A stretch of DNA of 64,000 nucleotides from Chiloscyllium plagiosum (Eukaryota). Below are positions 8,548 to 56,852 of this stretch, in pieces. The first letter of the stretch is position 1, and every line of letters begins with the position of its first letter. The notes under the pieces are model-generated. The model saw nothing but the letters and a program-made list of their open reading frames with translations, did not search any database and was not told the DNA's origin. Location: assembly GCF_004010195.1 (NCBI RefSeq), contig NC_057760.1, forward strand, positions 3,497,440-3,561,439, written 5' to 3'. The position numbers were made by a program, and so were the translations under genes.

Positions 8548-11500
8548 TCACGGTTTTGTAATGTTAATAAGTTGAGTTTTGTGACGGGACATATAGGGAG
8601 ACTTTGCAGAACTTTGAGAAGATAAAAAAGGCCTTCCGTTTGAAGAAAAGTAGGCAGATTTCAAAGCTCTACTAGAATTAGGAGCCTTGTTTATCTGACT
8701 GTGGGAAAATGTTTGGGGTTTCCTCATCATGGAATTAATTTTAGTGGGTTTGTGGAGAAAGTTTGGTGGCCTTCTGTATTTAAGGGTAATAGGAATAGGA
8801 TCATTAGAAGGATCTGGAGACCTGTTAGGGAATGGTATCGATAACCTTCTGTTAACAGGAGCTGTTAGAGAGAGATTACGAGGTTTTAATAAATTCCTAT
8901 TGATAAGGGTATTTGGAGAGTTAATACGAGGAATCCATGGTATTTGTTCTTTAACAGGAGTAATGTAAGGGGGTTGAACAAAAAACACCGAGGTTACTTT
9001 ATTCACAGGAGCATTTGGAGTGGGATTGTGAGAAGGTGAAATTCTCCTATGTAAGACGACAGGTGGAGTGGGCAGAGGCATAGATTTCCTATTCTCAGAG
9101 GCAAATGGACTGGGATTGTGAGAAGGGTTTGATTTCCTATTGACAGGAGTATTAGGAGTGCGACTATAAGAATGGTTATTTGTTCGCCTGTTGACAGAGA
9201 TATTTGGAGTGGGACTGTAAGAACGGTTTGTTCTCCGATTGACAGGAGTATTGGGAGTGGGACTGTAAGAACGGTTAGTTGTTCTGTTCATGGGGGTATT
9301 TGGAGTAAGATTGTAAGAATGGTTTGATGTTCTCCGATTGATAGGAATATTTGCAGTGGGATAGTAAGGACGGTTTGTTGTTCTGTTGACAGGAGTATTT
9401 GGCGTGGGACTGTAAGAANNNNNNNNNNNNNNNNNNNNNNNNNNNNNNNNNNNNNNNNNNNNNNNNNNNNNNNNNNNNNNNNNNNNNNNNNNNNNNNNNN
9501 NNNNNNNNNNNNNNNNNNNNNNNNNNNNNNNNNNNNNNNNNNNNNNNNNNNNNNNNNNNNNNNNNNNNNNNNNNNNNNNNNNNNNNNNNNNNNNNNNNNN
9601 NNNNNNNNNNNNNNNNNNAGTTGTTCGTCTGTTGACAGGGGTATTTGGCGTGGGACTGTAAGGACGGTTAGTTGTTCTATTGACAGAGGTATTTGGCGTG
9701 GGACTGTAAGAACGGTTAGTTGTTCTATTGACAGGGGTATTTGGCGTGGGACTGTAAGAACGGTTAGTTGTTCTATTGACAGGGGTATTTGGCGTGGGAC
9801 TGTAAGAACGGTTAGTTGTTCTATTGACAGGGGTATTTGGCATGGGACTGTAAGAACGGTTAGTTGTTCTATTGACAGGGGTATTGGGACTGTAAGAACG
9901 GTTAGTTGTTCTATTGACAGGGGTATTTGGCGTGGGACTGTAAGAACGGATAGTTGTTCTATTGACAGGGGTATTTGGCGTGGGACTGTAGGAATGGTTT
10001 GATGATTTTCTATTCACTATGGTTGTAGTGGGATTGTAGGAATGATTTGAAGTTCTCTTCTTAATAGAATCTGTTGGGTTGGGAATATAAGACGAATTTG
10101 AAAATCTAGTTTTAGAAGTGTTTTGGTTATGAATTTCATTAAACCCTGGAATCTGTTGACCATTTGAACCACTCAGAATTGTTGAGAATGTTCTATTCAC
10201 AGGAGTAGTTGGAATAGGATTGCCAGAAGGTATTGAAGTTTTCTTATTCACAGGGGCAGCTGGAAGTTTATTGTGGGAAGGTTTTGAAGTTTTCTTATTC
10301 ATCAATATAGTTGAAGTTGGCTTGCGGGAACCCTTTGTAGATAATCTATTCACTGGGGTAATATGAGTGAAACTGTTGGATGGTGAAAATCTATACTTAG
10401 GGACTTTTGGAGAATGAATTTGATATAAGTGTCGGGTTTTTTGATGCATGGGAGACATTTTATGGTGTTCTTGGGGAGGGGTTGAAGGTTTCCTATTTGC
10501 AACAGCAATTAAAGAGGCAACATAAGGGTTTGAAGCTTTATTTGTAAGTACTTTTGGTGAATATTCATGATGAAACTGTACGACTTGTCTATCACCCAAT
10601 GTAGGTTGAGAAAAGCTATTTGAGAACTTAGGGGTTACCATATTCACAGGTGCATTATGGCTAAAAATATGAGGGCTTATCGGAAGTCTGCTATTTTCAG
10701 CAGCAGTTGGACTGGGATAATGGGAAAGGATTGGTGAGGTATTTTTACGGCGCTTTGAAGGATGAGTGTAATGAAAACGTGGAATTTGTCTGTTTGTAGC
10801 TTGAGGAGGAACAATGGACACCTTTGGCGATACAATATTCATAAAGGCAGTCGGATTGGGATAATGTGAAGGGTTTGGTGAGCTATTTTTCTGTATATTT
10901 GGAACATGAGTGCTATGAAATTGTGGAATTTGTCTATTGGTGAGAGTATCTTGAGGAGGAAAAATGAAAACTTCTGGAGATACTGTATTTATAGAGGCAG
11001 CTTGGCTAGGATAATGTGAAGGGTTTGGTGAGCTATTTTTCTGTCTATTTGGAATATGAGTATAATGAAAGCGTGGAATTTGTCTATTGGTGAGAGTATC
11101 TTGAGGAACAATGAACACCTTTGGCGATACAATATTCATAGAGGCTGTCGGATTGGGATAATGTGAAGGGTTTGGTGAGCTATTTTTCTGTAGAGTTGGC
11201 GCATGAGTAGAATGAAACTGTGGAATTTGTACATTCTTAATATCTTGAGAAGGAACAATGAAAAACTTTGGCAATACTATATTCGTAGGGGTAGTTTGAC
11301 TGGGATTAGAAGGGCTCGGTGAGCTATTTTCCTGGATATTTGGAATATGAGTATAATGAAACTGTGGAATTTGTCTATTAACAGTATCTTGAGGAGGAAG
11401 AATGAAAATCTTTGAAGACACTATATTCATAGGGGCAATTGGACTGGGATTATGTGAAGGGTTTGGTGAGGTATTTTTGCGCATATTTGGAGGACGAATA

Positions 11501-14500
11501 ACTTGGTGCTGTGGAATTTGTCCATTCGAAACAATAGTCTGGGGAGTGACAAGGAAAACCTTTGACACTACTGCACTCGTAGGGGCAGTTGGACTGAGAT
11601 TACTTGAAGGGTTTGGTGATTTATTTTTGTGGATATTTGGAGGATGAGGAAGTTGATGCTGTGGAATTTGTCCATTGATGAGAGTATCTTGAGGCGAAAC
11701 ACTGAAGATCTTTAAGTATGTTATATTTGCAGGGGCAGTTGGACTGCGATTATGTGAAGTGCTTGGTGAACTAGTTTTCTGGATATTTGGAGTATGAGTA
11801 TAATGAAAGTGTGGAATTTGTCTACTCATAGAAGTAATTTGAGGAAGAGCATTGAAAACCCTTGTGGATACTATATTCAGGGGGGCTGTTGAAGTGGAAT
11901 TGTGTGAAGATTCTGAAGATAGTTTTTTCCCAGGGGCAGATGAGGTGTGATTATGGGAAGATTTGGAAGCTCGCTTATTCCCAGAACCAGATGGAGTGCG
12001 ATTATGGGAAGATTTTGAAGATCGCTTATTTCCAGGAGTGGATGGAGTGCGATTATGGGGAGACTTCGAAGTGCGTTTATTCCCAGAACCAGACTGAGCA
12101 CGATTATGGGAAGGTTTTGAAGATCTCTTGCTCCCAGACATGGATGGAGCACGATTATGGGAAGGTTTTGAAGATCTCTTACTCCCAGACACGGATGGAG
12201 CACGATTATGGGAAGATTTTGAAGCTTGCTTATTCCCGGATGCAAATGGCGGAGTGTGCTTTTGAGAAAGTTGTAAAGATCTCTTATATTGAGGGGCAGA
12301 ATGTATGTGACTGTGGTAAGGTGAAAATCTTGTATTTACAGTAATAGATGGTGTTGGAAAGTGGGAAAGTGAAACTCCATCTGGAGTATCGATATGAGGA
12401 AACCATGGGCTTTGTCCATCCATAGGATTACCCTGAAAAGGTCCAGGCAAAAGTGTTGAGGGTGCTGTATTCAGATGAATGTTTTGAGGAGAAGCAAGTG
12501 AAAGTTTCATGTTTTCAAGATTATGAGGATATGATGTGGGTCCTCCATTCATAGCAATATTTTGATTTAGACCGTGGGAAAGCACTGATGATCTTTTCAA
12601 GAAAGCATTTTGAAAAGCAGGATGGAAAACTCTTGATAGAATTCTGTTCCTAGAAGGATTTTGACTGGGCCCATGGAAAGTCACTGGAGAGATTCTGTTA
12701 AAAGGATCCTTATGAGGACTGAACAAAACTCTAGATTTTAAATTTTTGGATGCATCTTGAGTAGAACTGGGTGGAGATACTGAAAAACTGAAATTCATTG
12801 GTTCATCGTGTTTAAGGGCTTGGGAATAAATTGAAGAGCCCCTAATATTAGAATGAGGAGGTTCTGGAGAAGACCTTTTGCTAAGCTGAGATGTTTGATT
12901 ATGATTGTGGGAAATCATTGATGACTTTCTACTAACATATGTATTCAACTTCGGCATGTAGTGAGAAATTGAAGATTTATTATTTACAGGAACCTTTTGC
13001 ATAGGACTTTGGGATAATGTTGAAGGTTTGTTCCTGTGCAACATTGGTGTGGATATTCTTTGAGCAGGAATATGAAAGGACATTGACAGTCTTCTATTCA
13101 GAGAAGCGTGTTGGGTAGAAGTAAGGAAAATCATAAAAGATTTGCTATTCAAAGCAGAATTTGGAGTATGATTGTGAAAGGAGAATATCTGCGTCCCACT
13201 TTGGGGCACATTTTGTTTCGGCCTGTTGGAGGATGTCAGGGACCTGCTATTCCTAATGATGCTTTTCCCATTTGATGCAATTACATCAAGTTGTCTTAAT
13301 GCATTTTCAAGGATACCTACATCATTTTCATTGGGATTTCTTCGAGAAAACTCTTTTTTGGTTTCAATTAGAAGATTTTCCAGCTGCTGCACATTGGGCT
13401 CCTCTGATGTTGAGTTTGATAGCCCTTTTAACAATTTATTTGTATGTTTCAGCTCCTCTGTAACTTGTTTTTGACCTAGGATATTTTGGCTATCCAAGAA
13501 GCTCATGACTATATTACTCTGTGTCTCTCTATTAGGCAATCCCCTCTTTTGTTCAGCATGGTCATACTTGAGACTTCCATTATGAATGAAGAGACCTCTG
13601 ACTGATCCTTCATTCATTTCATTAATCAACCCCTGGCTTTGCTTTGGCTGCGTTGACCCTTGTTCTCTTTTGAAAGGTTTTTTTTCCAGTGTTACCTCTT
13701 TAGTAGTGCTTTGAGAAGTTTCTTCAGAAATTTCATTCTTTTCAGTCTTTGATAGTATTACATTCAACTGATCTAAGGCAGCTTTGATATTATTTATGTC
13801 ATTCGTGGTTGGTTTTCGTTTTGAGAACTGCTTGTCCAAATCGTTCATTAAATTTTCAAGAGAAGGTAAGTCAGAATTCTTTGTGATCTCTGGTAGACCC
13901 TGTGACAATCCCTGATTATCTTGCTGTGCTGATCTGTCTACTTTATATTGTTGCCCTAAGGATAGCTGATTATGAGAAGGAATGCTCGTTACTTGTTCAC
14001 TGATTAAAATTGGATTAAATATATGTTGATGGTGAAGATCTCCTTCAGGAATGATCAAACTCCTGAGCAGTCCTCTCTGGTGATTAGTTCTTGTATTTTC
14101 TGTGGTTGAGTCATTTTTTGGATGGATCTGTTGATTAATTTCTGTGTCATTCATGGCTAATGAGTGGCTTTTTAGAGGGTGAAGGCCTCCTGATTGAAGC
14201 AAATTTAGTGCAGTATTAATGTCACCCATGGTTACATTATGGCTTGTGGCTGGACTGTGTGAGCTATGTTTCTGAGATACTTTGGTAGTGGTGGGTGAGC
14301 CACGCCTTTGAGAAGGTTTGGTTACGGTAGATGAGCTATGATTCTGAGATTGGCTGGTTACAGTATGTAAATCATATCTCTGTGGTGATTTGGTAGTGGT
14401 AGTTGAGCCATGGTTTTGAGATGCTTTGGTTGTAGTTGGTGAACCATGTTTCTGAGGCAATTTACTTGTAGTAGGCGAGCCATGTTTCTGAGATACTTTG

Positions 14501-16307
14501 GTTGGGGTGGGTAAGCCATATTTCTGAGGTGATTTACTTGTCGTGGCTGAGCCATGTTTCTGAGATACTTTGGTTGGGGTGGGTGAGCCATGTTTCTGAG
14601 ATACTTTGGTTGGGGTGGCTGAGCCATGTTTCTGAGATACTTTGGTTGGAGTGGGTGAGCCATGTTTCTGAGATGGCTTAGTAGAATAAGGTGAACTATG
14701 CTTTGGAGATATCCCAGTTGGTGTGCCTGAACCATGTTTGTGAATTGGCTTGTTTGGAGTTGGTAAGATGTGTTTGTGAGATCCTTCTGTTGAAGTGAAA
14801 AGGTCAATTTTCTGAGATCCTTTGACTGAAGTGGATGAGACGTGTTCTTGAAGTATGTTGGTTGGTGTGTTTGAGCTACTATCTTGCTTAGATGCAGTAG
14901 TTGACATGGAAAAGGCATTTGGCTGAGGAACTGTAGCTGACATGGAGAAATCACCTTTCTGAGGAACTATGGTTGACGTGGAGAAACTACCCTTCTGAGG
15001 AACTATGGTTGACATGGAGAAATTACCTTTCTGAGGAACAATGGTTGATATGGAGAAATTACCCTTCTGAGGAACTATGGTTGACATGGAGAAATTACCC
15101 TTCTGAGGAACTATGGTTGACATGGAGAAATTACTTTTCTGAAGAACTGTAGCTGGCATGGAGAATTCACTGTGGTGAGGAACTATGCTTGATGTAAAGA
15201 CATTATTTTGCTGAGGAACAGTGTTTGACATGAAGGCGGCATTGTGCTGAGGAAATGTATTGAACATGAAGCCATTGTTGAGAGGTGCTGTGGTTGACAC
15301 GGGGAAGATATCTTGCTGAGGAGCTGTACTTGACTTGTAAAGGTTATCTGCCTGGGGAGTTTTGGTCGACTTGGAGAATTCATTTTTCTGAGGTCTTTTG
15401 GCTGAAATGGAGAAGGAATCTTTCTGAGGCGCTGTGATTAGAGAATGTGAGCCATATTTCTGAGGTTCTTTTCCAGTAGTCTTATTCAGAGTTGACAATG
15501 TTTGGGAGAACTTTGCAGTTGGAATCACATCATTACTAATGTGCTGAATGCTCTCAATTATGATTGACTCTTTCATTGAAAAGCCTGGCTTCAACTGGTT
15601 TGGGATATATTCTGTTTCTTTTTTCTGCGTGGGAGACTCTTTCGAAGCATTGGGAAGAGTATTAAGCATTGTTTTAACAAGACTTTCAAATGAAGAAAAT
15701 TCTTTTTCCTGCTTAGAAATGTTCTTGTGAATTGGGCCTGTTGACTTTTCGACCTGAGAGTGCCCACTCATGGTTTGTTCATGTGGGTAACTAGGGCTGC
15801 CTCCAGACTTTTTACTGACAGCTCCTTGGTTTTTCTTCCAAGAAGCCTCCTTTGATCCTTTTTCATTAAGTATTTTTTTACAGGTTGTTTCTATTTTGTT
15901 CCTTGTATCTGATGCTTCTTTTTGTGTCCTGTGAGCTTTAAACTTCAAATAGTCCTCAAACATTTGGTAAAAGAGCTGCAGTTCTTGTTCTACATCAGAT
16001 GGAGCATGAGGGGAATCCGCTGACTTTTCCGCATCAAGATCTGTGCCCAAAGCTTCAATGTCCAGATAAGGAAGACTATCACCTCTTATATTGCCTTTGT
16101 TTTGTGTCACATAAGGATCACTGTGCTTAGATTGATCAGATGTAGGTTGGAAATGGTCTTCCTTAGCTGTGTTATACATCAGGTCACCAGTGTCTTCTAA
16201 CATTTTTTCCAAATACAATGGCATAGTTGCATTTTTCACGTAAAAGTCAAAAATTATATCACCGAGTGATCCACTGTCACGTCTGAAGCGCCTCAAATCT
16301 TCTGGAA
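8548..16307 (-). CDS. Giant terminal exon (~7.76 kb, ~2,585 codons) of uncharacterised mucin-like/low-complexity repeat protein
   Basis: 2582-aa ORF; acceptor tatttctttctgatatag at 16308-16309, phase 1 (V-PEDLRRFRRDS); tandem arrays have periods of 36, 48, 51 and ~150 nt; no transposon insertions; 200-N gap at 9419-9618. Confidence 0.88.
9130..10016 (-). repeat. Coding minisatellite, 48-nt unit (NRTTNRSYSPTPNTPV)
   Basis: Near-identical units ggggtatttggcgtgggactgtaagaacggttagttgttctattgaca; >=14 units plus gap. Confidence 0.9.
10690..11880 (-). repeat. Coding repeat, ~150-nt/50-aa unit, 8 copies
   Basis: Consensus-like NIVSPKVFIVPPQDTLT-NRQIPQFHYTHIPNIQK-NSSPNPSHYPNPTA(S/F)M repeated. Confidence 0.85.
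11890..12240 (-). repeat. Coding repeat, 51-nt/17-aa unit (KRSSKPSHNRAPSxSG[S/N]), ~7 copies
   Basis: Direct reading of DNA and translation. Confidence 0.85.
14260..15470 (-). repeat. Coding repeats, 36-nt/12-aa units (MSTIVPQKGNFS then GSPTPTKVSQKH)
   Basis: Two homogenised blocks (~14900-15150 and ~14480-14700) within a longer degenerate 12-aa periodicity. Confidence 0.85.
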
Positions 16308-17614
16308 CTATATCAGAAAGAAATACAGGTTCAGTTTTCTGCCTCTAGATCAAGTTAAAGGTGAATCCAATTTTATTTTCAAACTAATCAACAATTAAAT
16401 ACTTGATGCCTTTCACAACTCAGGAAAATTGCATCCTTGGGTCAGTTGTTAATTTTAACTTTCATAGACTTGCTTACTCATAGACTGATAGACATTTTTA
16501 GCACAGGAGGCAGCCATTCAGTCCACCAGTCAACAAAAGATTTGACTCTACACAACCTTTTTTCCAACATTTGATCCAAAAGACCATAAGATATAGGAGT
16601 AGAGCTCGGCAATTCAGTCTATTGGGTGTGAACAGGGCAGATAGATTTCTCAACTCCATTCTCCTGCCTTCTCCATGGAATCCTTGATTCCCTTACTAAG
16701 ATTCTTGCTTAGATTTCACAGCCCTCTGCAGCAATGAAGTTCACAGATTAACCACCTCCTTGGCTGAGGAAATTCCTCCTCATGTCAGTTCCAAACAGTT
16801 GTCCCTTCACTCTGTGACTGTGCCCTGTAGTCTCTCCTATTAATGGAAACATCTTCTCCAAGTCCACTCTATTCAGGCCTCTCAGTATTCTGTAAGTTTA
16901 CAATGAGAACCACCCCCCCCCCCCTCATCTTTCTAAACTCCATTGAGTACAGACCCAGAGTTCTCAACTGCTCTTCATATGGCAAACCATTCACCCCCAG
17001 AATCATTCTTGGATACGTCCTCTGGAGCTCTTCCAATGCCAACGTGTCCTTCCTTAGATATGAGGCACAAAACTGCTCACATACATCCAAATGTGGTCTG
17101 ACTATAGCCTCTGCACCTGCGTTCTAATCCTCTTGAAATCAATGCTACCATTGCATTTGCTTTCCTAACTGCCAAGTGAACCTGAATGTTAACCTGAAAA
17201 CGACCCTGAACTAGAACACGTCTTTTTGTACTTCCAATTTCCAACACCTTTCCCAGTTTAGAAAATAGTCTCCAATTCTTTTCTTCCTACCAAAGTGCAT
17301 CTGTAAACATAGCAACAATATCCTCAGTACGTTAATCCAGATCGTTCATGTATAATGGAACTAGTTGTGGACCAACACTGACCCATGTGGAACTCTACTG
17401 GTCACCAGCTGCCATCTGAAAATGTCCTCTTTATCCCCACTCCCTGCTTTCTGCCAGTCAACTGAACTTTTATCCATGCCAGTACATTGCCCCTAACATC
17501 ATGGGCTGTTATTTTATTTAACAGCCTCTTGAGTGACATCTTGTCAAAGGTCTTCTGGAAGTCTAGATAGATCACATTCACTGGCTCTCCTTTGTCTAAC
17601 TTGCTTGTTATCTC

Positions 17615-18230
17615 ATAGAATCCCTACTATGTGGCAGCCAGGCATTTGGCCTGTTGACTCCACAGCGATCCTCTAAACAGCATTCCACTCAGACCCATTG
17701 CCCTACCTCATCTCTGTAACCCTGCATTTCCCATGGCTAACCCACCGAGACTGCATATCCCTGGACACACTATAGGGCAATTTAGCTTGGCCAATCCAAC
17801 TAACCTGCACAGGGTGGCACGGTGGCACAGCCTCAGGTGACTGACTGTGTGGAGTTTGCACGTTCTCCCTGTGTCTGCGTGGGTTTCCTCCGGGTGCTCC
17901 GGTTTCCTCCCACGGTCCAATAGATGTGCAGGCCAGGTGAATTGGCCATGCTAAATTGCCCATAGTGTTAGGTGTATTAGTCAGGGATAAATGTGGAGAG
18001 ATGAGTCTGGGGGGGTTGCTCTTTGGAGGGTCAGTTTGGATTTGTTGGGCTGAAGAGCCTGTTTCCTCACTGTAGGGAATCTAATCTAATCTATTGACTG
18101 TGGGAGGAAACCCCGCAGACACGAAGAGAATGTGCAAACTCTACACAGTCAGTTGCCCAAGGAAGCAATTGAACCTGGGTCCCTGGCGCTGTGAGGCAGC
18201 AGTGCTAAGCACTGAGTTACCCTTCCACCC
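17615..18230. mobile_element. Minus-strand HE1 SINE split by a plus-strand HE1 SINE (17812-18093)
   Basis: Minus copy halves at 17615-17809 and 18095-18230 join colinearly. Confidence 0.85.
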
Positions 18231-18994
18231 TCAAATAATTTCTTTGAAGAATTCTAACAAAAATGACGTCCCCTTAACCTAGCTGTGCTGACTCAGCCCT
18301 ATTGCCTTAATCTCATCATTAATAATGGATTCAAAATCTTACCAATGACTGAGGTCAGGCTAACCAGCCCATCTTTTCTGTCATCTGCCTCCTTCCTGTC
18401 TTAAACATGGTGTTATGTTAGCCATTTCTCCATCCTCTGGAACCCTCCCTGACTCCAATGATTTGTGAAAGAGCACCACCAATGTTTCTACAATGTCCTC
18501 AGCTATCTCCTTCAGAAATCTGGGTAGTCCATCTGGTCAGGATGATGAATCATTCAGACCTTTCAGTTTCCCCAGCACCTTCTCCAGAGTGAAGGTCACG
18601 ACACTCATCTCTGCCCCAACTCTCTTGAAGTTTATTAAAGAAAAGTCCCTATCTCTCCTCTATCATTTTTTTGTTCCCCAGTGCTGCTTCTGTAGCCTCA
18701 TTTTCCAACAGTCCAGTGTCCACTCTTGAATCTCTTTTATGTTTCTAAAACCACTCCTACAATATTCTTTTACATTACTACCTAGCTTAGCCTCATATTT
18801 CATCTTCCCCCACACCCAATTGATTTTTAGTTATTCTCTGCTGGTTTTTAAAGGCTTGCCAATCTTCCAGCTTTCCACCAATCTTCACCACACTATATGC
18901 TTTTTGTTTTGCTGTCAGGCTGTCCCTGGCTTCCCTTGTCATCCTCCCCCTTAGTATGTTTCTTCTTGCTGTGAAGGTGCCCAGTGTTTTACTG

Positions 18995-19310
18995 GGGTGG
19001 ACAAAGTCCGAGGTCACACGACACCATGTTCTTATTAGATTAGACTAGATTCCCTACAGTGCGGAAACAGGCCCGTCGACCCAACCAGTCCACACCGACC
19101 CTCCGAAGAGTAACCCACCCAGACCCATTTCCCTCTGACCAATGCACCTAACACTATGGGTAATTTAGCCTGGTCAGTTCACCTGTCCTGCACATCTTTG
19201 GACTGTGGGAGGAAGCCAGAGCACCCGGAGGAAACCCACGCAGACATACAGACCAACAGGTTTCTTTGAAATCGCAAGCTTTTGGAACGCTGCCGCTTCG
19301 TCAGGTGAAA
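18995..19310 (-). mobile_element. Penelope-like 3' fragment split by a truncated HE1 SINE (19036-19250)
   Basis: gtcacacgacacca...|...ccaacaggtttctttgaaatcgcaagcttttggaacgctgccgcttcgtcagg; matches 39150-39240 and 46800-46880. Confidence 0.7.
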
Positions 19311-20330: not shown

Positions 20331-21985
20331 GAGTCATAGAGATGTACAGCATGGAAACAGACCCTTCGGTCCAACCTATCCATGCCGACCAGATATCCCA
20401 ACCCAATCTAGTCCCAACTGCCAGCACCCGGCCCATATCCCTCCAAACCCTTCCTATTCATATACCCATCCAAGTGCCTCTTAAATGTTGCAATTGTACC
20501 AGCCTCCACCACNNNNNNNNNNNNNNNNNNNNNNNNNNNNNNNNNNNNNNNNNNNNNNNNNNNNNNNNNNNNNNNATAGGAAGGAGACCAGAATTGCATG
20601 CAATATTCCAACAGTGGCCTAACCAATGTCCTGTACAGCCACAACAGGACCTCCCAACCCCTGTATTTAATACTCTGACCAATAAAGGAAAGCATACCAA
20701 CGCCTTCTTCACTATCCCATCTACCTGTGACTCCACTTTCAAGGAGCTATGAACCTGCACTCCAAGGTCTCTTTGTTCAGCAATACTCCCTAGGACCTTA
20801 CCATTAAAGTGTATAAGTCCTGCTAAGATTTATTTTCCCAAAATGCAGCACCTCGCATTTATCTAAATAAACTCCATCTGCCACTTCTCAGCCCATTGGC
20901 CCATCTGATCAAGGTCCTGTTGTAATCTGAGATAACCTTCTTCGCTGTCCACTACACCTCCAATTTTGGTGTTATCTTCAAACTTACTAACTATACCTCT
21001 TATGCTCACATCCAAATCATTTATATAAATGGTGAAAAGTAGAGGGCCCAGCACCGATCTTTGTGACACTCCACTGGTCACAGCCTCCAGTCTGAAGAAC
21101 AACCCTCCACCACCACCCTCTGTCTTCTACCTTTGAGCCAGTGTCTATGTCCAAATGGCAAGTTCTCCCTGTATTCTGTGAGATCTAACCTTGCTAACCA
21201 GTCTCCCATGGGGAACCCTGTCAAACGCCTTACTGAAGTCCATATAGATCACTTCTACTGCTCTGTCCTCATCAATCCTCTTTGTTACTTCTTCAAGCAA
21301 CTCAGTTAAGTTTGTGAGACATGATTTCCCACGCACAAAGCCATGTTGACTATCCCTAATCAGTCCTTGCTTTTCCAAATGCATGTACATCCTGTCCCTC
21401 AGGATTCCCTCCAACAGCCTGCTCATCACCGACGTCAGGCTCACTGGTCTATAATTCTCTGGCTTGTCCTTACCACCCTTCTTAAACAGTGGCACCACGT
21501 TTAGCAACCTCCAGTCTTCCAACACTTCACCTGTGATTATCGATAGAAATATCTCAGCAAGAGGCCCAGCAATCACTTCTCTAGCTCCCCACAGAGTTCT
21601 CGGGTACACCTGATCAGGTTCTGGGGATTTATCCACTTTTACGTGTTTCAAGACATCCAGCACTTCCTCCTCTGTAATCTGGACACTTTTCAAGGTGTCA
21701 CCATCTATTTCCCTACATTTTATATCTGCCATATCCTTTTCCACAGTAAATACTGATGCAAAATACTCATTTAGTATCTCCCCCATTTTCTGCGGCTCCA
21801 CACAAAGGCCGCNNNNNNNNNNNNNNACCCTCAATTTCTTTAGTCATCCAGCATTCCCTACACCTACCAGCCTTCCCTTTCACTCTGATACTTTCTCTGG
21901 ATTCTTGTTACCTCATTTCTGAAGGCTTCTCATTTTCCAGCCGTCCCTTTATCTGCGAACAGCTGCCCCCAATCAGCTTTTGAAA
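20331..21985 (-). mobile_element. Younger HER1/CR1 LINE, RT region to 3' tail
   Basis: ORFs 21145-21834 (NYRPVSLTS, QHGFVRGKSCLTNL, YMDFSKAFD), 20863-21102 and 20408-20695; gagtcataga tail; two small N gaps. Confidence 0.92.
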
Positions 21986-37812: not shown

Positions 37813-37870
37813 CTCTCTCCTTGAGTATGGGCTGATGTGTCAGAATCCATTCAGTAGGTACATAAGGCAA
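37813..37870 (-). CDS. Predicted exon 3: LPYVPTEWILTHQPILKER
   Basis: Strong acceptor aacttttctccttacag, donor GAG|GTAAGA; the only open frame gives phases 0->1, bridging exon 2 and the giant exon. Confidence 0.6.
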
Positions 37871-46371: not shown

Positions 46372-46715
46372 GATGATGGTCTGGTGGTAATGTCACTGGA
46401 CAAGTATCCAGAAACGATGGCTATTGCTCGAGGAACATGTTCTAGTGAACATGGTTTTAAATTCCACCCAGCTGGTGGAACTGAAATACAGTTAATAAAT
46501 CTAGAACACCAGGATAATATCAATAATGGTGACCACGACAACTATCGATTGCTGTAAAAACCCACCTAATTCACTCATATCCGATCGGCAAGGAAGTTTG
46601 CTGTTATTGCCTACAAGTGACTCCAGGCTCTCAGAAATGGCTGAGCAAGCCACTCAATTCAAGGATAATTCGAGATGGCAACAATTGCTGATTTTGCCAG
46701 TAACATCCAGATCGT
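46372..46715 (+). mobile_element. Second tRNA-headed SINE family
   Basis: gtggtaatgtcactggac...ttaaattccacc head; related copies at 23765, 51635 and 61518. Confidence 0.65.
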
Positions 46716-46799
46716 CTAAAAATCATAGTGGAAGCTCCCACTAGATGGAGCTTCAACCCAAACCACAAGTTCAGAGGTCCAGTTTTTTTAAACTACATT

Positions 46800-46882
46800 A
46801 AACATCACACAACACCGGGTTACAGTCCAAGAGGTTTATTTGGAAGTACAAGCTTTCAGAGCATTTCTCCTTCATCAGGTAG
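46800..46882 (-). mobile_element. Penelope-like 3' fragment with hammerhead core
   Basis: Reverse strand CCTGATGAAGGAGAAATGCTCTGAAAGCT...aataaacc. Confidence 0.65.
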
Positions 46883-47275
46883 TTACTGGCCACTAGATTA
46901 TTCTGCTTCCACCCAAATGTGTTGTGACCTTCTTGGGGAGCTTGGTTAGATTCCTCAATGTCCTCTTGCACTTGTTTGACACTTTCACAAGTTCTCTCTG
47001 ATCTTTTATTCTTTCTGTGTGTTGTTTGGTGGCTTGGTGTATCTAGCTCATAATTAATCATGGACTCTAAATGTGCAAACGATTTTGAATCTATTACATT
47101 TTTGTGTGAACAAATGCAGCCTCTAAGAATCATTCAATACCGAAGAGGCCCGTTAGTCCATTGCGTGTACATAGAACATAGAACAATACAGTCCACAATG
47201 TTGTGCCGAGTGTGAACAAATGCAGCCTCTAAGAATCATTCAATACCGAAGAGGCCCGTTAGTCCATTGCGTGTA

Positions 47276-47620
47276 CATAGAACATAGAACAATAGAACAA
47301 TACAGCCCACCAAGTTGTGCCGAACATTTGTCCTAGCTTAAGCACCCATCCATGTACCTATCCAATTGCCGCTTAAAGGTCACCAAAGATTCTGACTCTA
47401 CCACTCCCACAGGCAGCGCATTCCATGCCCCCACCACTCTCTGGGTAAAGAACCCACCCCTGACATCTCCCCTATACCTTCCACCCTTCACCTTAAATTT
47501 ATGTCCCCTTGTAACACTCTGTTGTACCCGGGGAAAAAGTTTCTGACTGTCTACTCTATCTATTCCTCTGATCATCTTATAAACCTCTATCAAGTCACCC
47601 CTCATCCTTCGCCGTTCCAA
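47276..47620 (-). mobile_element. Young CR1 LINE 3' end
   Basis: ORF 47333-47620; (catagaa)n tail. Confidence 0.9.
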
Positions 47621-47767
47621 CTGCCAAAAATATCCCAGTACTTATACGAGTCCCACTTCCCCACATTAGGACTGCAGCCTTAAAGGCTGATATTTTAAAT
47701 ACTCATTGTGCGGTTTTCCACCTTAGCTGACCTCCCAGGAAATGCATTCCAGCTTTAGGGCTACCTT

Positions 47768-48065
47768 GGGTGACACAGTAGCTCAGTGGTTAGCACTGCT
47801 GCCTCACAGCACCAGGGTCCCAGGTTTGATTCAGGCCTCGGGCGACTGCCTGGGTGGAGTTTGCACATTCTCCCCGTGTCTGTGTGGGTTTCCTCCGGGT
47901 GCTCCGGTTTCCTCCCACAGTCACAAAGATGTGCAAGTCAGGTGGATTGGCCATGCTAAATTGCCTGTAGTGTTAGGGATAAATGGGTCCAAATGGGTTA
48001 CTCTTCAGAGGACCGGTTGGGCCGAAGGGCCTGTTTCCATAGTGTAGGGAATCTAATCTAATCTA
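47768..48065 (+). mobile_element. HE1-type SINE
   Basis: Head, core and (aatct)n tail. Confidence 0.9.
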
Positions 48066-48069
48066 TCCC

Positions 48070-48790
48070 TGACTCTCTAGCCATCACCCTCTGGGTAAAA
48101 AATATTTTCCTCAGATCCCCTCTAAACCTCCTGCCTTTCACTTTAAAATTATGCCCCTTGTTATTGACCCCTCGACTAAGGGGAACAGCTATCCATTCTG
48201 TCCATGCCCCTTATTATCTTATACACCTCAATAAGGTCCCCCTTGAGTCTTTTGTTCCAAAGAAAACAGCCTGAGCTTATCCAGCCTCTCTTCACTGCCG
48301 AAATGGTCTGTCCCAGGCAACATCCTACTCAATCTCTTTTGTACCCTCTCCAGTACAACCACATCCTTCCTACAGTGTGATGACCAGAACTGCACACAGT
48401 ATGTCAGCTGTGGCCTAACCAAAGTTCTGTACAGCTCCAACAATAACTTTCCTGCTCTAATAATCTGTGCCATAACTGATAAAGGCAAGTAGGCAAAAGG
48501 GAGGACTGCAGATGCTGGAAACCAGAGTTCAGATCAGAATGGTGCTGGAAAAGCACAGCAGGTCAGGCAGCATCCGAGGAGTAGATCTTCATCTCTATTC
48601 CTGATGAAGAGTTTTTGCCCAAAATGTCAATTTTCCTGTTCCTTGGAAGCTGCCTGACCTGCTGTGCTTTTCCAGCACCACTCTGATCTAAAATCTGATA
48701 AAGGTAAGTGTCCCGTTTGCCACCTTATCTACTCTAGTAACGTGTCCTGCTGCCTTCAGGGTTCTTTGGACAAGAGCCTCAAGAACTCGG
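48070..48790 (-). mobile_element. CR1 3' fragment containing a palindromic hammerhead-family element (48491-48692)
   Basis: ORF 48228-48488; TSD ctgataaagg(c/t)aagt at 48476-48490 and 48695-48709. Confidence 0.8.
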
Positions 48791-49037
48791 AGCATTCTAG
48801 CGTCTTCATTATTTGTAACTATGTTGAATATTTTGCCGTGTCATTTCAATTCATTGATATTCTGACAGTAATTTGGTTTGCACTCAATTTTCTTTCTACT
48901 TTATTACCAGTTCTTTGGGAGGTCGAAGGCTAGGAAGGGTGCAAATCCATTTTCCTCCTCCTTCCCAACATAATTTAAATAACTACATGCCACGGCTACC
49001 TCAAGTTTCAATTTTTACAAACTTAATTTGATGTAAA

Positions 49038-49241
49038 GATGTGTGGGTTTCCTCCGGGTGCTCCGATTTCCTCTCAGTCCAAAGATGTGCAGGTTAGGTG
49101 AATTGGCCATGCTAAATTGCCCATAGTTATAGGTGTATTAGTCAGAGGGAAATGAATCTGGGTGGGTTACTCTTCGGAGGGTCGGTGTGGACTTGTTGGG
49201 CTGAAGGGCCTATTTCCACACTGTAGAGAATCTAATCTAAT
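49038..49241 (+). mobile_element. HE1-type SINE, 5'-truncated
   Basis: Core and tail. Confidence 0.85.
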
Positions 49242-50039
49242 GTAAAGAATATAGGGAACTCAGGACTGGGAGAGTGGTTTTGAACAAATTCTACCCTATT
49301 AATATTTTATATGACTAATTAAAACTTAATTCCTTGTATTTGATCCATCTGAAATAATTCCTTCAAACTCTGAAACGGTGCCTACCTCACATCTCGTCTC
49401 TCCCCCAGTGCTGATAGACCTTAGTCAGTATATTTGTCAACTCAACTTTGGACTTTTTCACTTTGTCTAAAAATTTAAAATCTGCCTCAGACACATTAAA
49501 ATTGCATCCTGTCCCTTGCAAACAACTGGTCACCATTCTCTCCTTCACACTCCTGGTCCCTACCTTACCCTCAACACAGTTGTGCTCCTCATCCTCCCTT
49601 ACATGCATCCTGCTCCCCACGGGGAATTTGGATCCCACCGACACGTACAATCTTCATTTTCTTCATCAATTTGCTCTGTGGCATCTCACCTTCTTAAGAG
49701 TCATAGAGATGTACAGCACGGCAAGTTCGGTCCAACTTGCCCATGCCGACCAGATATCCCAACCCAATCTAGTCCCACCTGCCAGCTTCTTATTGCATGT
49801 TGCTGCCTCAATATCCACTTCTGATACCAATGAACTTCTCTAGGTCAATACCAGTTAGAAACAGAGACACAAAGACAGTATGTGAGAGAATTTTATCGAG
49901 GTACTAAAAATGAGAGATAATCATGGTCAAAATGTAATATTGAGTGAGATACTAAGAGTCACAAATTGGCTGAACTAGAAATATACAGAAACCCGGGGCT
50001 ATTTGACAGAGCATGTGCAAAATAAAGGCTTTCTACAAC

Positions 50040-50685
50040 AAAGTTGTCACCCAAATTGATAAAATTATTAAGAAGGCATATAATGTGTTGGCTTTCATTA
50101 GCAAGGAAGTGAACTTAAGAGCCACGAGGTTATGCTTCAGCTCTATAGAGCCCTGGTTAGACCACACTTGGAATATTGTATTCAGTTCTGGTCGCCTTAT
50201 TATAGGAAGGACATGGAAACTTTAGAGAGGGTGCAGAGGAGGTTTACCAGGATGCTGCCTGGACTGGAGGGCATGTCTTATGAAGAAAGGTTGAGGGAGC
50301 TAAGGCTTTTCTCAATGGAGCAAAGAAGGGTGAGAGGTGACTTGATAGAGGTGTACAAGATGATGAGAGACATAGATAGAGTGAATAGCCAGAGACTTTT
50401 TCCCCAGGGCAGAAATAGCTATCACAAAGGAGCATTATTTTAAGGTGATTGGAGGACGTTTTAGGGGAGATGTCAGAGGTAGGTTCTTTACAGAGAGTGG
50501 TGGGTGCATGGAATGTACTCCCACAGTGGTAGTAGAATCAAATACATTAAGAACATTAAGTGACTCTTGGATAGGCACATGGAAATTAGTACAATGAAGG
50601 GTATGTAGGTTAGTTTGATCTTAGAGTAGGATAAAAGGTTAGCACAACATCAAGGGCCGAAGGGCCTGTACTGTTTTATGTAACT
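50040..50685 (+). mobile_element. CR1 LINE 3' region
   Basis: ORF 50132-50443 LYRALVRPHLEYCIQFWSP...LERVQRRF. Confidence 0.9.
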
Positions 50686-51074
50686 CCTTTAAATGTACCT
50701 TTGGAGTAGGTGGAAGCCATTTGCCTTAAAAGGTCTTTTCTACTATTCAATCAGAACATGGCTAATTTGCACCTCAATTCCATCTTCCCACACTTGCATC
50801 ATGTCTTTTGCTATCTTTGTCCCCCCCAACAAAAATCTATTAACCCCAGTCCTGAAACTACTAGCTAGTTCCTAGCATTGACAATCTTTTAAGGCACAGA
50901 GTTTCCTATTTCCACAACTCTTCATGTGAAGTAGTATTTTTCCTGATTTCCCTCCTAAATGGCTGAGCCTTGTTCTGAATTACTACCAGAGGAAATAGTT
51001 TATCTGTTTATTATCAGTTTGTTATAACCTTTTGTTAAACGTTGAACAGGGCCATTGTTCCTTTTGTGTCCAGA

Positions 51075-53060
51075 GGTAAGGAAGGTAAGTGATTGCCCCT
51101 GACATCAAGGCTGCATTTGGCTGAGTATGGCTTAAGTGTAGTCTTTGGAAACTGGAATGAATAGGAGTCAGGCAGAATCCCCACTGGTTAGAGTCAAAGG
51201 AAGATGGTTGTGGTTGGTGAGGTCAACCATCTCAGCTCCAGGACATCTCTGCAGGAGTTCTTCAGGGTAGTGTCCTATGCCCAACAATCAGCTGCTTCAT
51301 CAGATGGCCTTCTCTCCATTTCAAGTTAAAGAGTGGGCATGTTAATTGATGATTGCACAATACTCAGCACCATTGTGATTCCTCAGTTACTGAACCAGAC
51401 CATGCAGCAAGATCTGGATAATATCCAATTTAGGGCTGCCAAGTGGCAAGTAACATTTGTACCACACATTTGTGCCAGGCAATGACCATCTCTAACAAGA
51501 CAGAATCTGACCATCACCCTTTGACATATTCAATGATGTTACCATCAAACAATCACTAGCTATAAACATCCCATTGACCAAAAGCTGAATTAGATTAGCC
51601 AAATAAAAATAGTGATTACAAGAGCAGGACAGAGGGGTGGTGTAGTGGTAATGTCATTGGACTAGCTTCCTGAACTCCAAGTTAATGTTCTGAAGATATG
51701 GGTTTGCGTATGCAGTTGCTGGAGGAGTTGTACAGCACAGAAATAGATCCTTTGGCCCAACTCATCCATGCTGACTCCGTTTTCTAAACCGAACTAGTCC
51801 TATTGCCTGTATTCAGCCCATAGCCTTTTATCTTTCATTACATTACATTACAGTGTGGAAACAGGCCCTTCGGCCCAACAAGTCCACACCGACCCGCTGA
51901 AGCGCAACCCACCCATACCCCTACATTTACCCCTTACCTAACACTACGGGCAATTTAGCATGGCCAATTCACCTGACCTGCACATCTTTGGACTGTGGGA
52001 GGAAACCGGAGCTCCCGGAGGAAACCCACGCAGACACGGGGAGAACGTGCAAACTCCACACAGTCAGTCGCCTGAGACTGGAACTGAACCCGGGTCTTCG
52101 GCGCTGTGAGGCAGCAGTGCTAACCACTGTGCCACCGTGCCGTCTATCCGTATAGTAAAATTTGAATCCAATAAGAATCAGGATTAAAAAGCTCGCATAA
52201 TGGTGACCATGTAACTATCGTTAATTGTCACGAAAGGATTCACCAATGTCCTTTAGGAAGGAAAGATACATGTAAGTCAGACCTGGTAAGGTAACTCCAG
52301 ATCCAGATCAATATGCTAATGTCCCCTTGCAGCAATTATGGATAGCTAACAAATAGTATGATTTTTTTTAAACTTGAAAAAAATCCTGCAGTGAGTAACT
52401 CAGCTTCTGACTCCACAAAACCTGTCCACCATCTATAGGGCACCAATCAGGACTGTGATGAAATACTCCACCTGGATGAATGCAGCTCCAAAACATTTAG
52501 GAAGTTTCACACCATCCAAAACAAAGCAGCCCACTTGTTAGGCATCTCAATCTCACCTCCGTTCCTTCCTCCATCACTGACATTCAGTAATAGCAGTGCG
52601 CACTGCAGAAATTCACCAAAAATCCTTTGACAGCATTTTCCAAACCCATGACCACTTCCATCAAAAAAAGACCAGGACAGAAGATACATGGGAACACCAC
52701 CACCACCTGCACGCTCCCCTCCAAGCCACTCACCATGCTGAATTTTACTTATTCATTTGTGGGACATGGGCATCACTGGCTGCCCATCATTTATTGCCCA
52801 TGCCCAGTTGCCCTTGAGCAGGTGAGCTATCTTCCTGAACTGCTATTGTCCACGTGCTATAGGTTGCTGCCATGCCCTTAGGGAGAGAATTGCACGAAAT
52901 TTAACCAAGCGACAGCGAAGGAATGGCAATATATTTCCAAGTCAGAATGACTGGCCAACATTTATTGCCCATCTCTAATTGTTCTTGAGAAGATGGTGCT
53001 GAACCTGCAGTCCACGTGCTGCAAGTAGATCCACAATGCCCTTATGGAGGGAATTCCAGT
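51075..53060 (+). mobile_element. CR1/L2-group LINE with nested SINE, CR1 tail and HE1 (51836-52142, -)
   Basis: RT DNA (gacatcaaggctgcatttg, ggagttcttcagggtagtgtcc) resumes at ~52380 after the insertions. Confidence 0.75.
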
Positions 53061-53807
53061 TCTGAAGAAAGGACACTAGACCTGAAACGGTGACTTTGCT
53101 TTATCTCTGCAGTTGCTGCCAGACCTGTTGGAGTTTCTCCAACAATTTGTTTTTTGGGATTAAGATGGAAGCATGGCAACAGAGGGAGAGAACAGGAGGA
53201 GGGGATGGTGCGATAGCAGGAGGGGGACAGAGGCCAGACAGTAAAGATGGGATGATGAATGAGTTAAGAATAGAGGTGGAGGTGGATGATTACAGGAAGG
53301 GACAGAAGAAGAGTGGAGATGGAAATGATGTAAAGAAGAGACAAACGAAGGAGCACAGAGATAGACTGGGATGCGGCAGAACAGGAAAAGTTTGTGATTT
53401 TAAAGGAGTGATTCATTAAGTTAGATTTGAGAGGGGAGAAGGTTAGTTTTGGAGGGAAAGCAGTTGAGTAGCCTGACAACACTCTCTCTGTATTCTCCAT
53501 TTGGGTGAGGTAGAGGGGGAGACTAGAGTCCACACAACACTGTATCTGACAGGGATAAATTGCCGAGTACCAAAAGCTGTAGTATAATGAGATTCTCGAT
53601 GTTATAATACTTAGTGGATTGTGGATACCAAAACACTTACCTAGATGGTAACTGAAATTTACAATACAAAATATTTACTGTACCTAAAGTTAGAATTATT
53701 GAAATTTGAACTTGGGATTTTCTCTCATCAGTAACTTTTAGTGAAGCCTGTCTTAGATGCACAGATGGGTGGGGACAGTGATAGGTGGGTGGTTTAAAAC
53801 TACTTAC

Positions 53808-53950
53808 CATTGGTGTTTGTGCTCTGTGTTTCATAGTAGTCTCTGCATGTTTCTTAGGATGGGACGACATGAACTCTTGACTTGGACCTTTGCTGTGCTG
53901 ATGAGGAGCGAACACAATGGAGGAAACAGCTGGACAGTTGCAGGAAAACA
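53808..53950 (-). CDS. Predicted exon 2: (V)FSCNCPAVSSIVFAPHQHSKGPSQEFMSSHPKKHAETTMKHRAQTPM
   Basis: Acceptor tctctcttactttgatgccag, donor ATG|GTAAGT; the only open frame gives phases 1->0; unique sequence between repeats. Confidence 0.6.
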
Positions 53951-54669
53951 CTGGCATCAAAGTAAGAGAGATTTGCATTTATACAGTGTCACATCAGAAC
54001 ATAAAGCATAGCTTCAAACCTAAAATCCCTTACAAAGTTTTCATTTGTATCCCCCAATTCTTACATGCCTGATCTTGGTCATTCACAACCCACTGGAGTA
54101 ACCTAAGAGGGCACACTGCAGATGTGAGCTCTGACACTGGGAGTTGGCAGACTAATTGACTTGGGGGTGGGAAGGGAGGGAGAACTGCAGTCAAACCAAT
54201 TTCTACTTATTTATCTGCAAATGTAGGTGGATTGTGACCAGGGGTATAAGTCCTGGCTGATGTGAAGCCATCTATTAGCCATTAGATTGCCAGTCTATTT
54301 ACAGCACCTCGCAACGTAGGGGACCCTATAAGTAAAATATTTTAACTTAGTACGAACTATGGAGAGAGATAGAACTGTAATTCTTTAGGTTGTGCTGGCA
54401 TGTCCCCCCTCCCCACCTCCAGACCGCATTGTAGTCGCTCACTGTGATAAGATGAAGGTACAGACCTGCATGCTTTCACACAGGTCTCCACTCCAGCAGA
54501 GATTGAGGGAGGGAACAAAATCCCTAACAGTAGTGTCTTGAATTTTCAGTAATGACCACATCCTATCAATTCTAATGCATTTTTGTTTATTTCAAATATC
54601 CACAGGATAGATGCCATTAGGTTGTTTTCCCTTTGTGGGAAGAATCTAGGACCTGAGGGCATAATCTCA

Positions 54670-54989
54670 ATCATAGAAACCCAACAGTGTGGAAACAGAC
54701 CATTTAGCCCAACAGGGTCCAAACCAACGCTTAGAGTAAGCCACCTCGACCCATTCCGCTACCCTATTACTCTAGATTTATCCCGACTAATGCACCTACC
54801 CTACACATCCCTGGACACTACGGGCAATTTAGAAGACCAATTCACTTAACCTGCACATCTTTGGACTGTGGGAGGAAACCGTGCAGACATGGGGAGAATG
54901 TGCGAACTCCACATGGACAGTTGCCCAAGGCTGGAATGGAATCCAGGTCCGTTGCACTGTGAGGCAGCAGTGCTAACCACTGAGCCACC
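54670..54989 (-). mobile_element. HE1-type SINE within a CR1 3' fragment
   Basis: Head at 54989, tail at 54670. Confidence 0.85.
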
Positions 54990-56054
54990 AGAGAGATATT
55001 GGAGGAATTTCTTCTTTCAGCAGGTAGTGCATCTATACATGTCTTTACCACAGAAGGCTGTCCGTGCTGGGTTGTTAAGCATACTCAAGGCTGAAACAGA
55101 TAGGTTATTTTTTTTTTTTAAATGTCAGGAAAGGAATAAAAGGGTCACTCAACCTGAAATGTTAACAGATTTCTCTCCACAGATACTGCCAGACCTTAAC
55201 TTTTCCAGCAATTTCTGTTTTTGTTTCAGATTTATAACATCCACAGTTCTTTCAGTTTTTATTAAAGAATCAAAGGTAATAGAGTAAAGCAGTAAAGTGG
55301 ACTTGAGGATCATCAGATCAGCTATGCTCATTAAATGGCTGAACCAACCTATTGAACCAAATGGTCTAACTAAACCAAATTAATCAAACATAATATGCAT
55401 TTAAGGCATCTGTGTTTGCTGTCCCTTGATAATCAATATTTTCCCATATTATGGTCTCAACAGATGGTGACTGGTCTGTAGCTGCCTGCTTTATCACTAC
55501 TGTTTTCTCCCAGTTGGTAATCCTGCAACTGCTCAGCCTAAGTCACACATCCAAAGAGAATTTGAAGATTTTGGCCTTTGCGATTTTCATGTTTGTTTTT
55601 CTAAAATAGAAGCATCTAAACAAACTTTAGATATTTCTTTGTTACCCTATCCGATATTGCCCTTACCTTCAATATCAACATTAACAGCATCCTCTTTCTT
55701 GTGAAGACTTGTATCACATAACTCATCTAATACTTCAGTTTTCTGCTAAAAAGAGATCTCAATCTCTGCCCCTAATTTACCTATCCTCCTTATGGCTCTC
55801 CTTTTTAAGGAAATAAAAACTTCAATGCTGACTTATAGTTTTCCGATTCTTTTTCTATCTCATTCACTTTTTCCCTTTTTTTTTCCCTTTTCAGTTCTTC
55901 TCTGCACCTGTATTCAGCTGGATTTTGTACTGTATTTTGATCCTGACATTTATTATTTATTTTCTTTCTATTTTAAACTCGGTATCTCTGTTAACTTTTG
56001 ATACACTACCTTTTCTCACTCATAGGAATATCATGCTTGTAGTCTTATCACCTT

Positions 56055-56362
56055 GGGCAGCACAGTGGCTAGCATTGCTGCTTCAAGCAAACCCAGGTTC
56101 GATTCCAGCCTTGGGCAAATGTGTAGTTTGCCTTTCCCTGTTTCTGTAGGAGTTCCCTCCCAGTGCTCTGGTTTCCTTCCAGTCCAAAGATGTGCAGGTT
56201 AGGGTGAATTCACTGTGCTAAATTGCCCAGTGTCTAGGGATGTACAGGATTAGCCATGGGAAATGCAGGGTTACAAAGTAGATCGGGGTGGGATCCTCTT
56301 CAGAGGGGCAGTGTGGATTTGGAGGGCCGAATGGCCTGCTTCAACACTAAGGATTCTATGAT
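56055..56362 (+). mobile_element. HE1-type SINE, diverged
   Basis: Head, core and ggattctatg tail. Confidence 0.8.
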
Positions 56363-56785
56363 CTTAAGATCTCCCAGCACTGGATTTATTGTTTTACCTG
56401 AACCTTTTGGATACCACCCCTTTTTAATTGCTTGAATTATCAATCTTACAGTCCAGTATCTTACCTTTCATTGCCCCTACTTTGTAAATCTATATTGTAA
56501 ACCTAAACATATTCTCAAATAAGTAACCCACAGAAAGCAAACCATTCCTCAAAACTAGATCCAGCACTCCCTCCCGCTCTGAGAGCTTGGAAATGGTGTA
56601 CAGATTTCAAGAACTGCAAGTTGTGTCTTTTTACATTAAGTTCCCCCATCAAGTCTATATTTAGATAGCGACCACTGTTTTAGTTTGCTCATAGGTTTCC
56701 TCGCAACACCCACCCCCAAATGTTTGAAGGCAGAGTTCAAGTACTGATATTATATGGGGGGTTCTTCTAAAATGCCAGGACTTAC

Positions 56786-56852
56786 CTGAGAGACAGAAAA
56801 CCAAACAAGTGAAGGTAAGGACAGAGTTAACATCATTTTGGGGTTTTCTCAT
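56786..56852 (-). CDS. Predicted exon 1 of uncharacterised giant secreted repeat protein: MRKPQNDVNSVLTFTCLVFCLS
   Basis: ATG with purine at -3 (aagATGa); consensus donor CAG|GTAAGT, phase 1; hydrophobic stretch continues into exon 2. Confidence 0.6.

Follow-up and report, generated by a model that had tools for sequence, protein, structure and literature searches.

Semenogelins are encoded by a signal exon followed by a giant repetitive exon, and the proteins are basic, rich in His and Ser, proteolytically processed and fast evolving. Granins are acidic, with many dibasic sites, and their general build combines short conserved parts in a variable chain, a big exon and a convertase site; S100 fused-type proteins are cytoplasmic, carry an N-terminal S100 EF-hand domain and have no signal peptide; gel-forming and membrane mucins have either VWD and cystine-knot domains, or a SEA domain together with a membrane segment; and actinodins contain a repeated, Cys-bounded motif of nine amino acids (aa). 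With these systems we compare a gene on the minus strand of a 64,000-nucleotide (nt) stretch of the genome of the shark Chiloscyllium plagiosum (hereafter the window; NC_057760.1, positions 3,497,440 to 3,561,439; the coordinates below are those of the window). Two sources add that the gelled matrix of semen consists of semenogelins (PMC5923003), and that elasmobranch Scpp proteins are acidic, with about 1.8 SxE motifs per 100 aa, and have their first three coding introns in phase 0 and their genes beside sparc-L (PMC9122587).

The gene is real, and its product represents an undescribed protein family, so far met only in elasmobranchs. As for function, we favour, with a probability of roughly 45%, a secreted two-part matrix proprotein, encoded by a single-copy elasmobranch gene, which would be cut to free a polycationic, gel-forming tail.

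Gene structure and elasmobranch relatives

Four exons on the minus strand, namely, 56852-56786 (67 nt), 53950-53808 (143 nt), 37870-37813 (58 nt) and 16307-8548 (7,760 nt), have AG acceptors and GTAAG donors throughout and chain with intron phases 1, 0, 1 into a translation of 2,675 aa, with a single stop and only 5 Cys. An earlier note on this DNA had put forward these exons, signals, phases and chain length, and called the protein nearly Cys-free; all of this could be reproduced. The chain holds as given, but it is not unique, since a second frame of exon 1 also joins. The features of the gene are as follows:

56950..57200, minus strand: CpG-rich stretch, likely promoter (GC 0.59, 18 CpG, observed/expected ratio 0.84)
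56786..56852, minus strand: exon 1 coding part in frame A (ATG 56852, phase-1 end), hydrophobic and signal-like; 22/22 residues as in the C. punctatum protein P0002
56786..56836, minus strand: exon 1 in the overlapping frame B (ATG 56836/56833, phase-0 end), putative homologue of the ray signal peptides by a 13-mer scan and shuffles
53808..53950, minus strand: optional 143-nt exon, required by frame A and without counterpart in three ray proteins
53808..53897, minus strand: 90-nt sub-exon that starts behind an inner acceptor and continues frame B
37813..37870, minus strand: 58-nt exon (phase 0 to 1), which encodes the last part of the putative ancestral signal peptide and the mature N-terminus; ungapped match to the skate protein P0005
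8548..16307, minus strand: last coding exon, the giant one, of 7,760 nt with a gap of 200 N inside
7852..7857, minus strand: first AATAAA past the stop, candidate polyadenylation signal

From 9619 to 16305, the 2,229 codons of the giant exon's coding frame contain no stop, against 92-181 stops in each of the other five frames. The exon had been described as free of stops, which is so for these codons; the 200-N assembly gap at 9419-9618, translated as 67 X, interrupts it further on. The same 16-aa repeat can be read on either side of the gap, so the frame is probably continuous, and because of the gap the length of 2,675 aa is approximate only. The CpG-rich stretch lies, as had been claimed, upstream of exon 1, where it would act as the promoter; two short upstream open reading frames, of 4 and 7 codons, occur between it and the coding ATGs (56923-56934, minus strand). 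At the other end, a stretch of 92 stop-free codons in another frame (8382-8660, minus strand) spans the stop and extends about 170 nt beyond it. It may represent an older C-terminus that a frameshift removed, and the ray proteins show no match to it.

The searches turned up orthologues, with E values of 2.6e-29 or better, in bamboo shark, whale shark, electric ray, devil ray and skate, five elasmobranchs in all:

GCC21657.1, Chiloscyllium punctatum (P0002)
XP_048476281.1, Rhincodon typus (P0003)
XP_069798583.1, Narcine bancroftii (P0001)
XP_062897835.1, Mobula hypostoma
XP_055486459.1, Leucoraja erinacea (P0005)

Word-based searches returned one protein among 2,846 candidates (Narcine), two among 2,398 (C. 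punctatum, 95%, and Rhincodon, 76%), and the same three among 8,000. A HMMER profile scan of 1,835,955,588 representative sequences gave five matches at E<=0.001, including P0002, P0001 and the Mobula and Leucoraja proteins; the fifth, P0006 (E 1.7e-7), covers 22 positions, repeated 8 times, and we rejected it as a chance match that stems from repeats. No relative beyond elasmobranchs was found among these 1.84 billion representatives. One word-based search missed the Mobula protein, which was in its range, relatives above 50% identity collapse to one representative, and unannotated genes are invisible to protein searches; thus, 'elasmobranch-restricted' means here that nothing else was detected. 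In the 3.56-Gb genome of this shark the gene gives one match, as does the optional 143-nt exon, and two protein queries, the second with a stricter first pass, found no paralogue.

Over the conserved start of the giant exon, identity is 95% in C. punctatum, 78% in Rhincodon and 34-37% in the rays. Motifs are co-linear between the window protein and its orthologues, and the ray orthologues retain short invariant blocks and repeat types along their whole length; this bears out the claim of a real, selected gene. None of the five relatives has been characterised: they are gene models that bear either an automatic low-complexity name or no name, and the two shark models (904 and 1,027 aa) and the skate model are incomplete. 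This is a family, so far confined to sharks and rays, that misleading low-complexity names and unfinished models conceal in databases.

Homology searches, which the earlier note had proposed, returned elasmobranch orthologues and no characterised family, and its statement that no family could be recognised still stands. No Pfam family scored above cut-off in the window or the five orthologues; the sub-threshold matches (Med18, Mab-21, Rx_N, DUF6794) were set aside. The best match of the profile to PDB sequences, VPS4B at E 0.0098, was taken as a chance match of helix pattern; the ESM Atlas gave no usable feature match and structure matches of TM<=0.43, and Foldseek, run with a low-confidence N-terminal model, found nothing at E<=0.001. 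Neither the gene nor its accessions are described in the literature searched, which largely excludes subscription journals, and the accessible parts of PMC11979771 and PMC13188829 do not mention it. Among the RNA sequencing runs listed, none carries 12300-16307.

N-half, candidate cleavage site and basic tail

The proposed mechanism has four steps. First, a signal-like N-terminal segment, seen in the sequence, would direct the protein to the secretory path. The earlier description of the protein as secreted and mostly disordered is supported, and the three rays have hydrophobic, signal-like N-terminal segments. The protein has no membrane anchor: beyond residue 100, no 19-residue stretch exceeds a hydropathy of 1.35 in the three full-length proteins (best 0.83-1.35). 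Second, the N-half, 750-1,100 aa long and near neutral in rays, may keep the chain soluble or pack it in secretory granules. Third, a furin-type convertase would cut at a single RxxR|S site behind helical hairpins, the motif being present in the sequence. Fourth, the freed disordered polycation of 1,200-1,500 aa, with recurring His/aromatic motifs, would condense with polyanions, for example sulfated glycans, into a gel or matrix. The features of the giant exon are the following:

15667..16269, minus strand: three conserved helical blocks (16269-16189; 15987-15856, with one conserved Cys; 15720-15667), invariant columns in 5/5 sequences
14266..15232, minus strand: two 12-aa tandem arrays, whose QKHGSP-type unit is also present in whale shark and devil ray
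13741..13866, minus strand: helix-turn-helix hairpin copy 1, kept in sharks and rays (predicted local distance difference test, pLDDT, 69-86)
13264..13389, minus strand: hairpin copy 2, intact in this shark and degenerate in rays (pLDDT 60-72)
13243..13254, minus strand: RxxR|S site (residues 1108-1111) at a charge boundary, where a convertase may cut
10696..12237, minus strand: basic tail with 17-aa Ser/Lys/His repeats and repeats of about 50 aa with an RQIP-x-FH motif common to rays
9106..9999, minus strand: 16-aa Ser/Pro/Thr/Asn/Arg repeat array, split by the gap 9419-9618

Besides its helical hairpins, of which there are one or two, the N-half contains conserved short helical blocks and a single conserved Cys. 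Its invariant residues form three blocks within the first 240 residues of the giant exon, and include that Cys. Three-way identity peaks at residues 101-150 (21/50), 201-300 (27/100) and 901-950 (17/50), with values of 0-13 elsewhere, and the peak blocks coincide with predicted helices. All four long relatives keep the 42-residue helix-turn-helix, which this shark has in two copies. With an hhalign probability of 0.04%, homology between the N-terminal hairpin and the middle ones was rejected, and prediction of a homodimer of the Cys-bearing hairpin scored 0.02 against a mark of 0.32. A single Cys follows residue 30, and the mature shark and devil-ray chains have 1 Cys each. Matches to the QKHGSP-type pattern number 6, 9 and 4, with 0 in P0001. 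An RGD at residue 163, which is not conserved in the relatives, was discarded.

With respect to processing, none of the three rays has the site proposed earlier, the RFRR at residue 96, but processing as such keeps a candidate: the pattern RxxR-S-[P/L] occurs exactly once in each full-length protein (3/3; residues 1108, 802 and 829). This site sits just behind hairpin copy 2 or its remnant, and marks a charge boundary, with 12-14 Asp+Glu per 100 residues right before it and 0-6 right after. By block shuffling, the chance of finding the pattern within 30 residues is 0.006, 0.018 and 0.026. As a mechanism, conserved cleavage that separates the helical half from a polycation of 1,200-1,500 residues would be concrete and testable.

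Several observations weigh against the two-part proprotein. First, the AlphaFold model, which does place helices at the three blocks, is of low confidence (pLDDT 43, predicted template modelling score 0.26). Second, the RxxR-S-[P/L] pattern was picked post hoc, and for plain RxxR the corresponding chances are 0.20, 0.37 and 0.49. Third, the three sites share a column in only one of three alignment modes and otherwise lie within about 60 columns of each other; moreover, the shark database models end before the site, so that a single shark sequence tests it. Finally, the putative signal peptide of frame B is weaker in this shark (hydropathy 1.75) than in the rays.

An alternative is a granin-like granule protein or peptide precursor, in which the helical blocks would be active products or sorting signals and the basic tail, instead of an extracellular gel, a filler for the packaging of endocrine or exocrine granules. 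In its favour are short helices that are conserved while the disordered chain around them varies, the single big exon and the candidate convertase site; a tail of isoelectric point (pI) 11.6-11.8, only 1-2 strict furin sites per protein and the lack of any Pfam family over cut-off speak against it, and we consider it unlikely.

The region behind the site, 1,191-1,497 residues long, has pI values of 11.66, 11.64 and 11.77 and 14-15.5% Pro, and the motif types of its repeats recur in rays. The earlier description of the whole protein as basic suits the C-terminal 1,500 aa, but not the N-halves of the ray orthologues (pI 6.1-6.5). Ser+Thr make up 16-37% per 200 aa, and there are five tandem arrays. 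In the 16-aa array (8 copies), changes at codon positions 1/2/3 number 2/1/7; the other three arrays have no such bias. An Arg/Lys/His-rich tail of 1,200-1,500 aa whose repeats turn over fast could also belong to a cationic defence or nucleic-acid-binding polymer, whose role, in place of matrix formation, would be to act on microbes or to bind DNA in mucus or semen. However, there are few internal cut sites for making short peptides, and 14-15% Pro with low hydrophobic content makes the tail ill-suited to membrane-lytic amphipathic peptides; we hold this somewhat less probable than a granin-like precursor.

The gene may also account for one of the elasmobranch secretions that are poorly known, for example sperm matrix, mucus, ampullary gel or egg case. 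Our guess as to tissue gives about a quarter each to the sperm matrix of the male tract and to skin mucus or ampullary gel, smaller and equal shares to oviduct or egg case and to skeletal or dental tissue, and about a fifth to anything else.

Two overlapping frames at the 5' end

The three ray proteins have a signal-like segment, in P0001 counted, on our reading, from the internal Met 61, followed directly by the region that the 58-nt exon encodes. When the first 13 residues of the ray proteins were compared with 23,721 stop-free 13-mers (minus strand, 16.4-64 kb), the best match was the second frame of exon 1, and the end of this match coincides with the phase-0 donor at 56786. Frame B plus the 58-nt exon aligns with the skate protein without gaps over 34 residues; its scores with the three ray proteins are 61, 36 and 35 (p <0.0005, 0.007 and 0.002 by shuffling). 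The local scores of frame A are 33, 22 and 21, and the sole significant one is due to the shared 58-nt exon. Thus, the N-terminus proposed earlier, frame A, fails as the ray-type one (21-33 versus 35-61). Since frame B is the better match to the ray signal peptides, the ray-like frame B is the ancestral start, the ray exon borders being those implied by protein alignment rather than by ray DNA.

Which start this shark mainly uses is a separate matter. Frame B joined to the whole 143-nt exon meets a stop inside that exon, whereas the inner acceptor at 53897 yields a 90-nt sub-exon compatible with it. The workable products are of 2,675, 2,622 and 2,652 aa, and the upstream ATG with the 143-nt exon, as in the earlier note, is one of three workable starts. 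All candidate starts have a hydrophobic N-terminal segment; over 11 residues its hydropathy reaches 2.64 in frame A and 2.22-2.50 in the rays. Among database models, P0002 uses the four-exon start, and in P0003 the optional exon is spliced to the one of 58 nt. The C-terminus of P0002 jumps to another frame of the giant exon (13097-13174, minus strand), which implies that the model was ended by an artificial splice or by a frameshift in its assembly; as this resembles an automatic-model error, P0002 lends frame A little weight, and P0003 may have been guided by P0002. P0003 starts at an ATG matching 53978 (minus strand), which in this shark is in frame 9 codons upstream of the optional exon, and its good signal-like segment (whale shark hydropathy 2.27) makes a third start possible. 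On balance, we slightly favour frame B, with or without the 90-nt sub-exon, as the main start in this shark; frame A is appreciably less probable, and the start beside the optional exon improbable.

If frame A is used, carpet sharks may have swapped their signal peptide by overprinting, through a new upstream ATG and the gain of the frame-shifting 143-nt exon. Frame A would then be the stronger signal peptide, the ray-type frame would decay or persist as a second isoform, and the product would be the precursor of an undescribed elasmobranch polycationic biomaterial. Three observations agree with this: when frame B was recoded synonymously 20,000 times, only 6.6% of the versions left frame A open and this hydrophobic; the optional exon is free of indels and stops in three sharks, with 44/48 residues identical in P0002 and 41/48 in P0003 (against 229/240 and 187/240 for the start of the giant exon); and of the 12 candidates in the 19-kb interval, the 3 that keep the frame all use the donor of the optional exon. 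On the other hand, 6.6% is not rare and the optional exon also fits frame B through its inner acceptor, and we regard overprinting, in both its parts, as rather unlikely. Should carpet sharks really start in frame A, the gene would be a clear example, in vertebrates, of an overlapping frame that took over the signal peptide once an exon had been gained.

Alternatively, the gene may work in rays but be in decay, or seldom expressed, in the lineage of this shark: the weak frame-B signal and the out-of-frame ATG would be damage, and frame A with the 143-nt exon a gene-finder artefact. Frame A without that exon does stop after 28 codons, overlapping the frame-B start, the word-based searches returned no further shark orthologue, and the tail of P0002 is an artificial frame jump. 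However, the giant exon keeps its 2,229 stop-free codons, the invariant blocks are kept in three sharks, and 7 of 10 changes in one repeat array, though not in the other three, fall at third codon positions. Decay is, in our view, very improbable.

Genomic neighbourhood and comparison with described families

ANP32E, which had been named as the neighbour, lies upstream on the same strand, with its acidic exon at about 62.5-62.8 kb and its last exon at about 60120-60187; the sole PDB match of the acidic exon is ANP32E chain 4nft_E, at a weak E of 7.9 carried by one shared motif. A VPS45 exon (E 6e-11) lies about 285 kb past the 3' end of the gene, and in human, too, ANP32E and VPS45 lie close to each other. 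PLEKHO1 was not located: 0 of 93 PH matches fall on the contig of the gene, and none of the long unique-sequence open reading frames in the 100 kb beyond its 3' side was recognised as a PLEKHO1 exon. Only about 3 kb (57200-60120), on the same strand, separate the ANP32E stop from the CpG-rich stretch, so read-through transcripts are possible. About 11 kb past the window end, a GC-rich, Pro/Arg-coding segment (L013:1034-1597) is probably the promoter island of ANP32E. An Rfam scan of 49000-64000 gave 0 matches. The introns are filled by decayed reverse-transcriptase frames, like those of long interspersed elements, and by repeats like short interspersed elements, as read from translations (e.g. 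21145-21843, minus strand), and two short exon-like stretches with acceptor-like pyrimidine tracts lie on the plus strand at 2120-2200 and 4143-4220.

Compared with its orthologues, the window gene differs at the 5' end, where the rays lack the residues of the optional exon and match exon 1 in frame B. Among described families, the SCPPs resemble it in being secreted, disordered and poorly alignable, and the first coding intron of the gene is in phase 0 in frame B. However, its intron phases are 1, 0, 1 with frame A and otherwise 0, 1 (frame B) or 0, 0, 1, rather than three in phase 0; the protein is basic (tail pI >11.6) and poor in SxE (0.2-1.1 versus 1.8 per 100 aa); and the gene does not lie beside sparc-L, with 0 of 8 SPARC_Ca_bdg matches on its contig and ANP32E and VPS45 as neighbours. 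The same data bear on a mineralisation matrix protein of enameloid or tesserae, a functional stand-in for SCPPs, which a secreted, disordered, Pro/Ser-rich and elasmobranch-restricted protein could be; the low SxE density, the lack of acidity and the absence of any SPARC-family match on the contig make this improbable.

S100 fused-type proteins (filaggrin, hornerin, repetin) share small exons before a giant repeat exon and a His/Ser/Arg-rich processed tail, and the human ANP32E region lies near their cluster. Yet no S100 match was found in the five orthologues or the window (E<=1), 0 of 7 genomic S100 matches fall on the contig, and the product has a signal-like N-terminus in three rays. Mucins and PRG4 are similar in their long Ser/Thr/Pro-rich tandem repeats in one large exon, but the gene lacks VWD, SEA, cystine-knot and hemopexin domains (by Pfam) as well as a membrane segment, and its tail is strongly cationic. 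Actinodins differ from the mature shark and devil-ray chains, with their single Cys.

The semenogelins SEMG1/2 resemble the gene in the proposed gel role, which is an analogy only: there is no sequence or Pfam match and no mammalian protein among the five profile matches, the gene is 5-6 times longer, with a helical N-half, and semenogelin sits at a different locus. By that analogy, a mode of action like that of semenogelin or of other giant-exon matrix precursors, without membership of their families, may apply at somewhat less than even odds. As judged from sequence features, then, the broad kind is a familiar one, a putative secreted, repetitive proprotein from a giant exon, and the protein is neither an SCPP, nor an S100 fused-type protein, nor a mucin.

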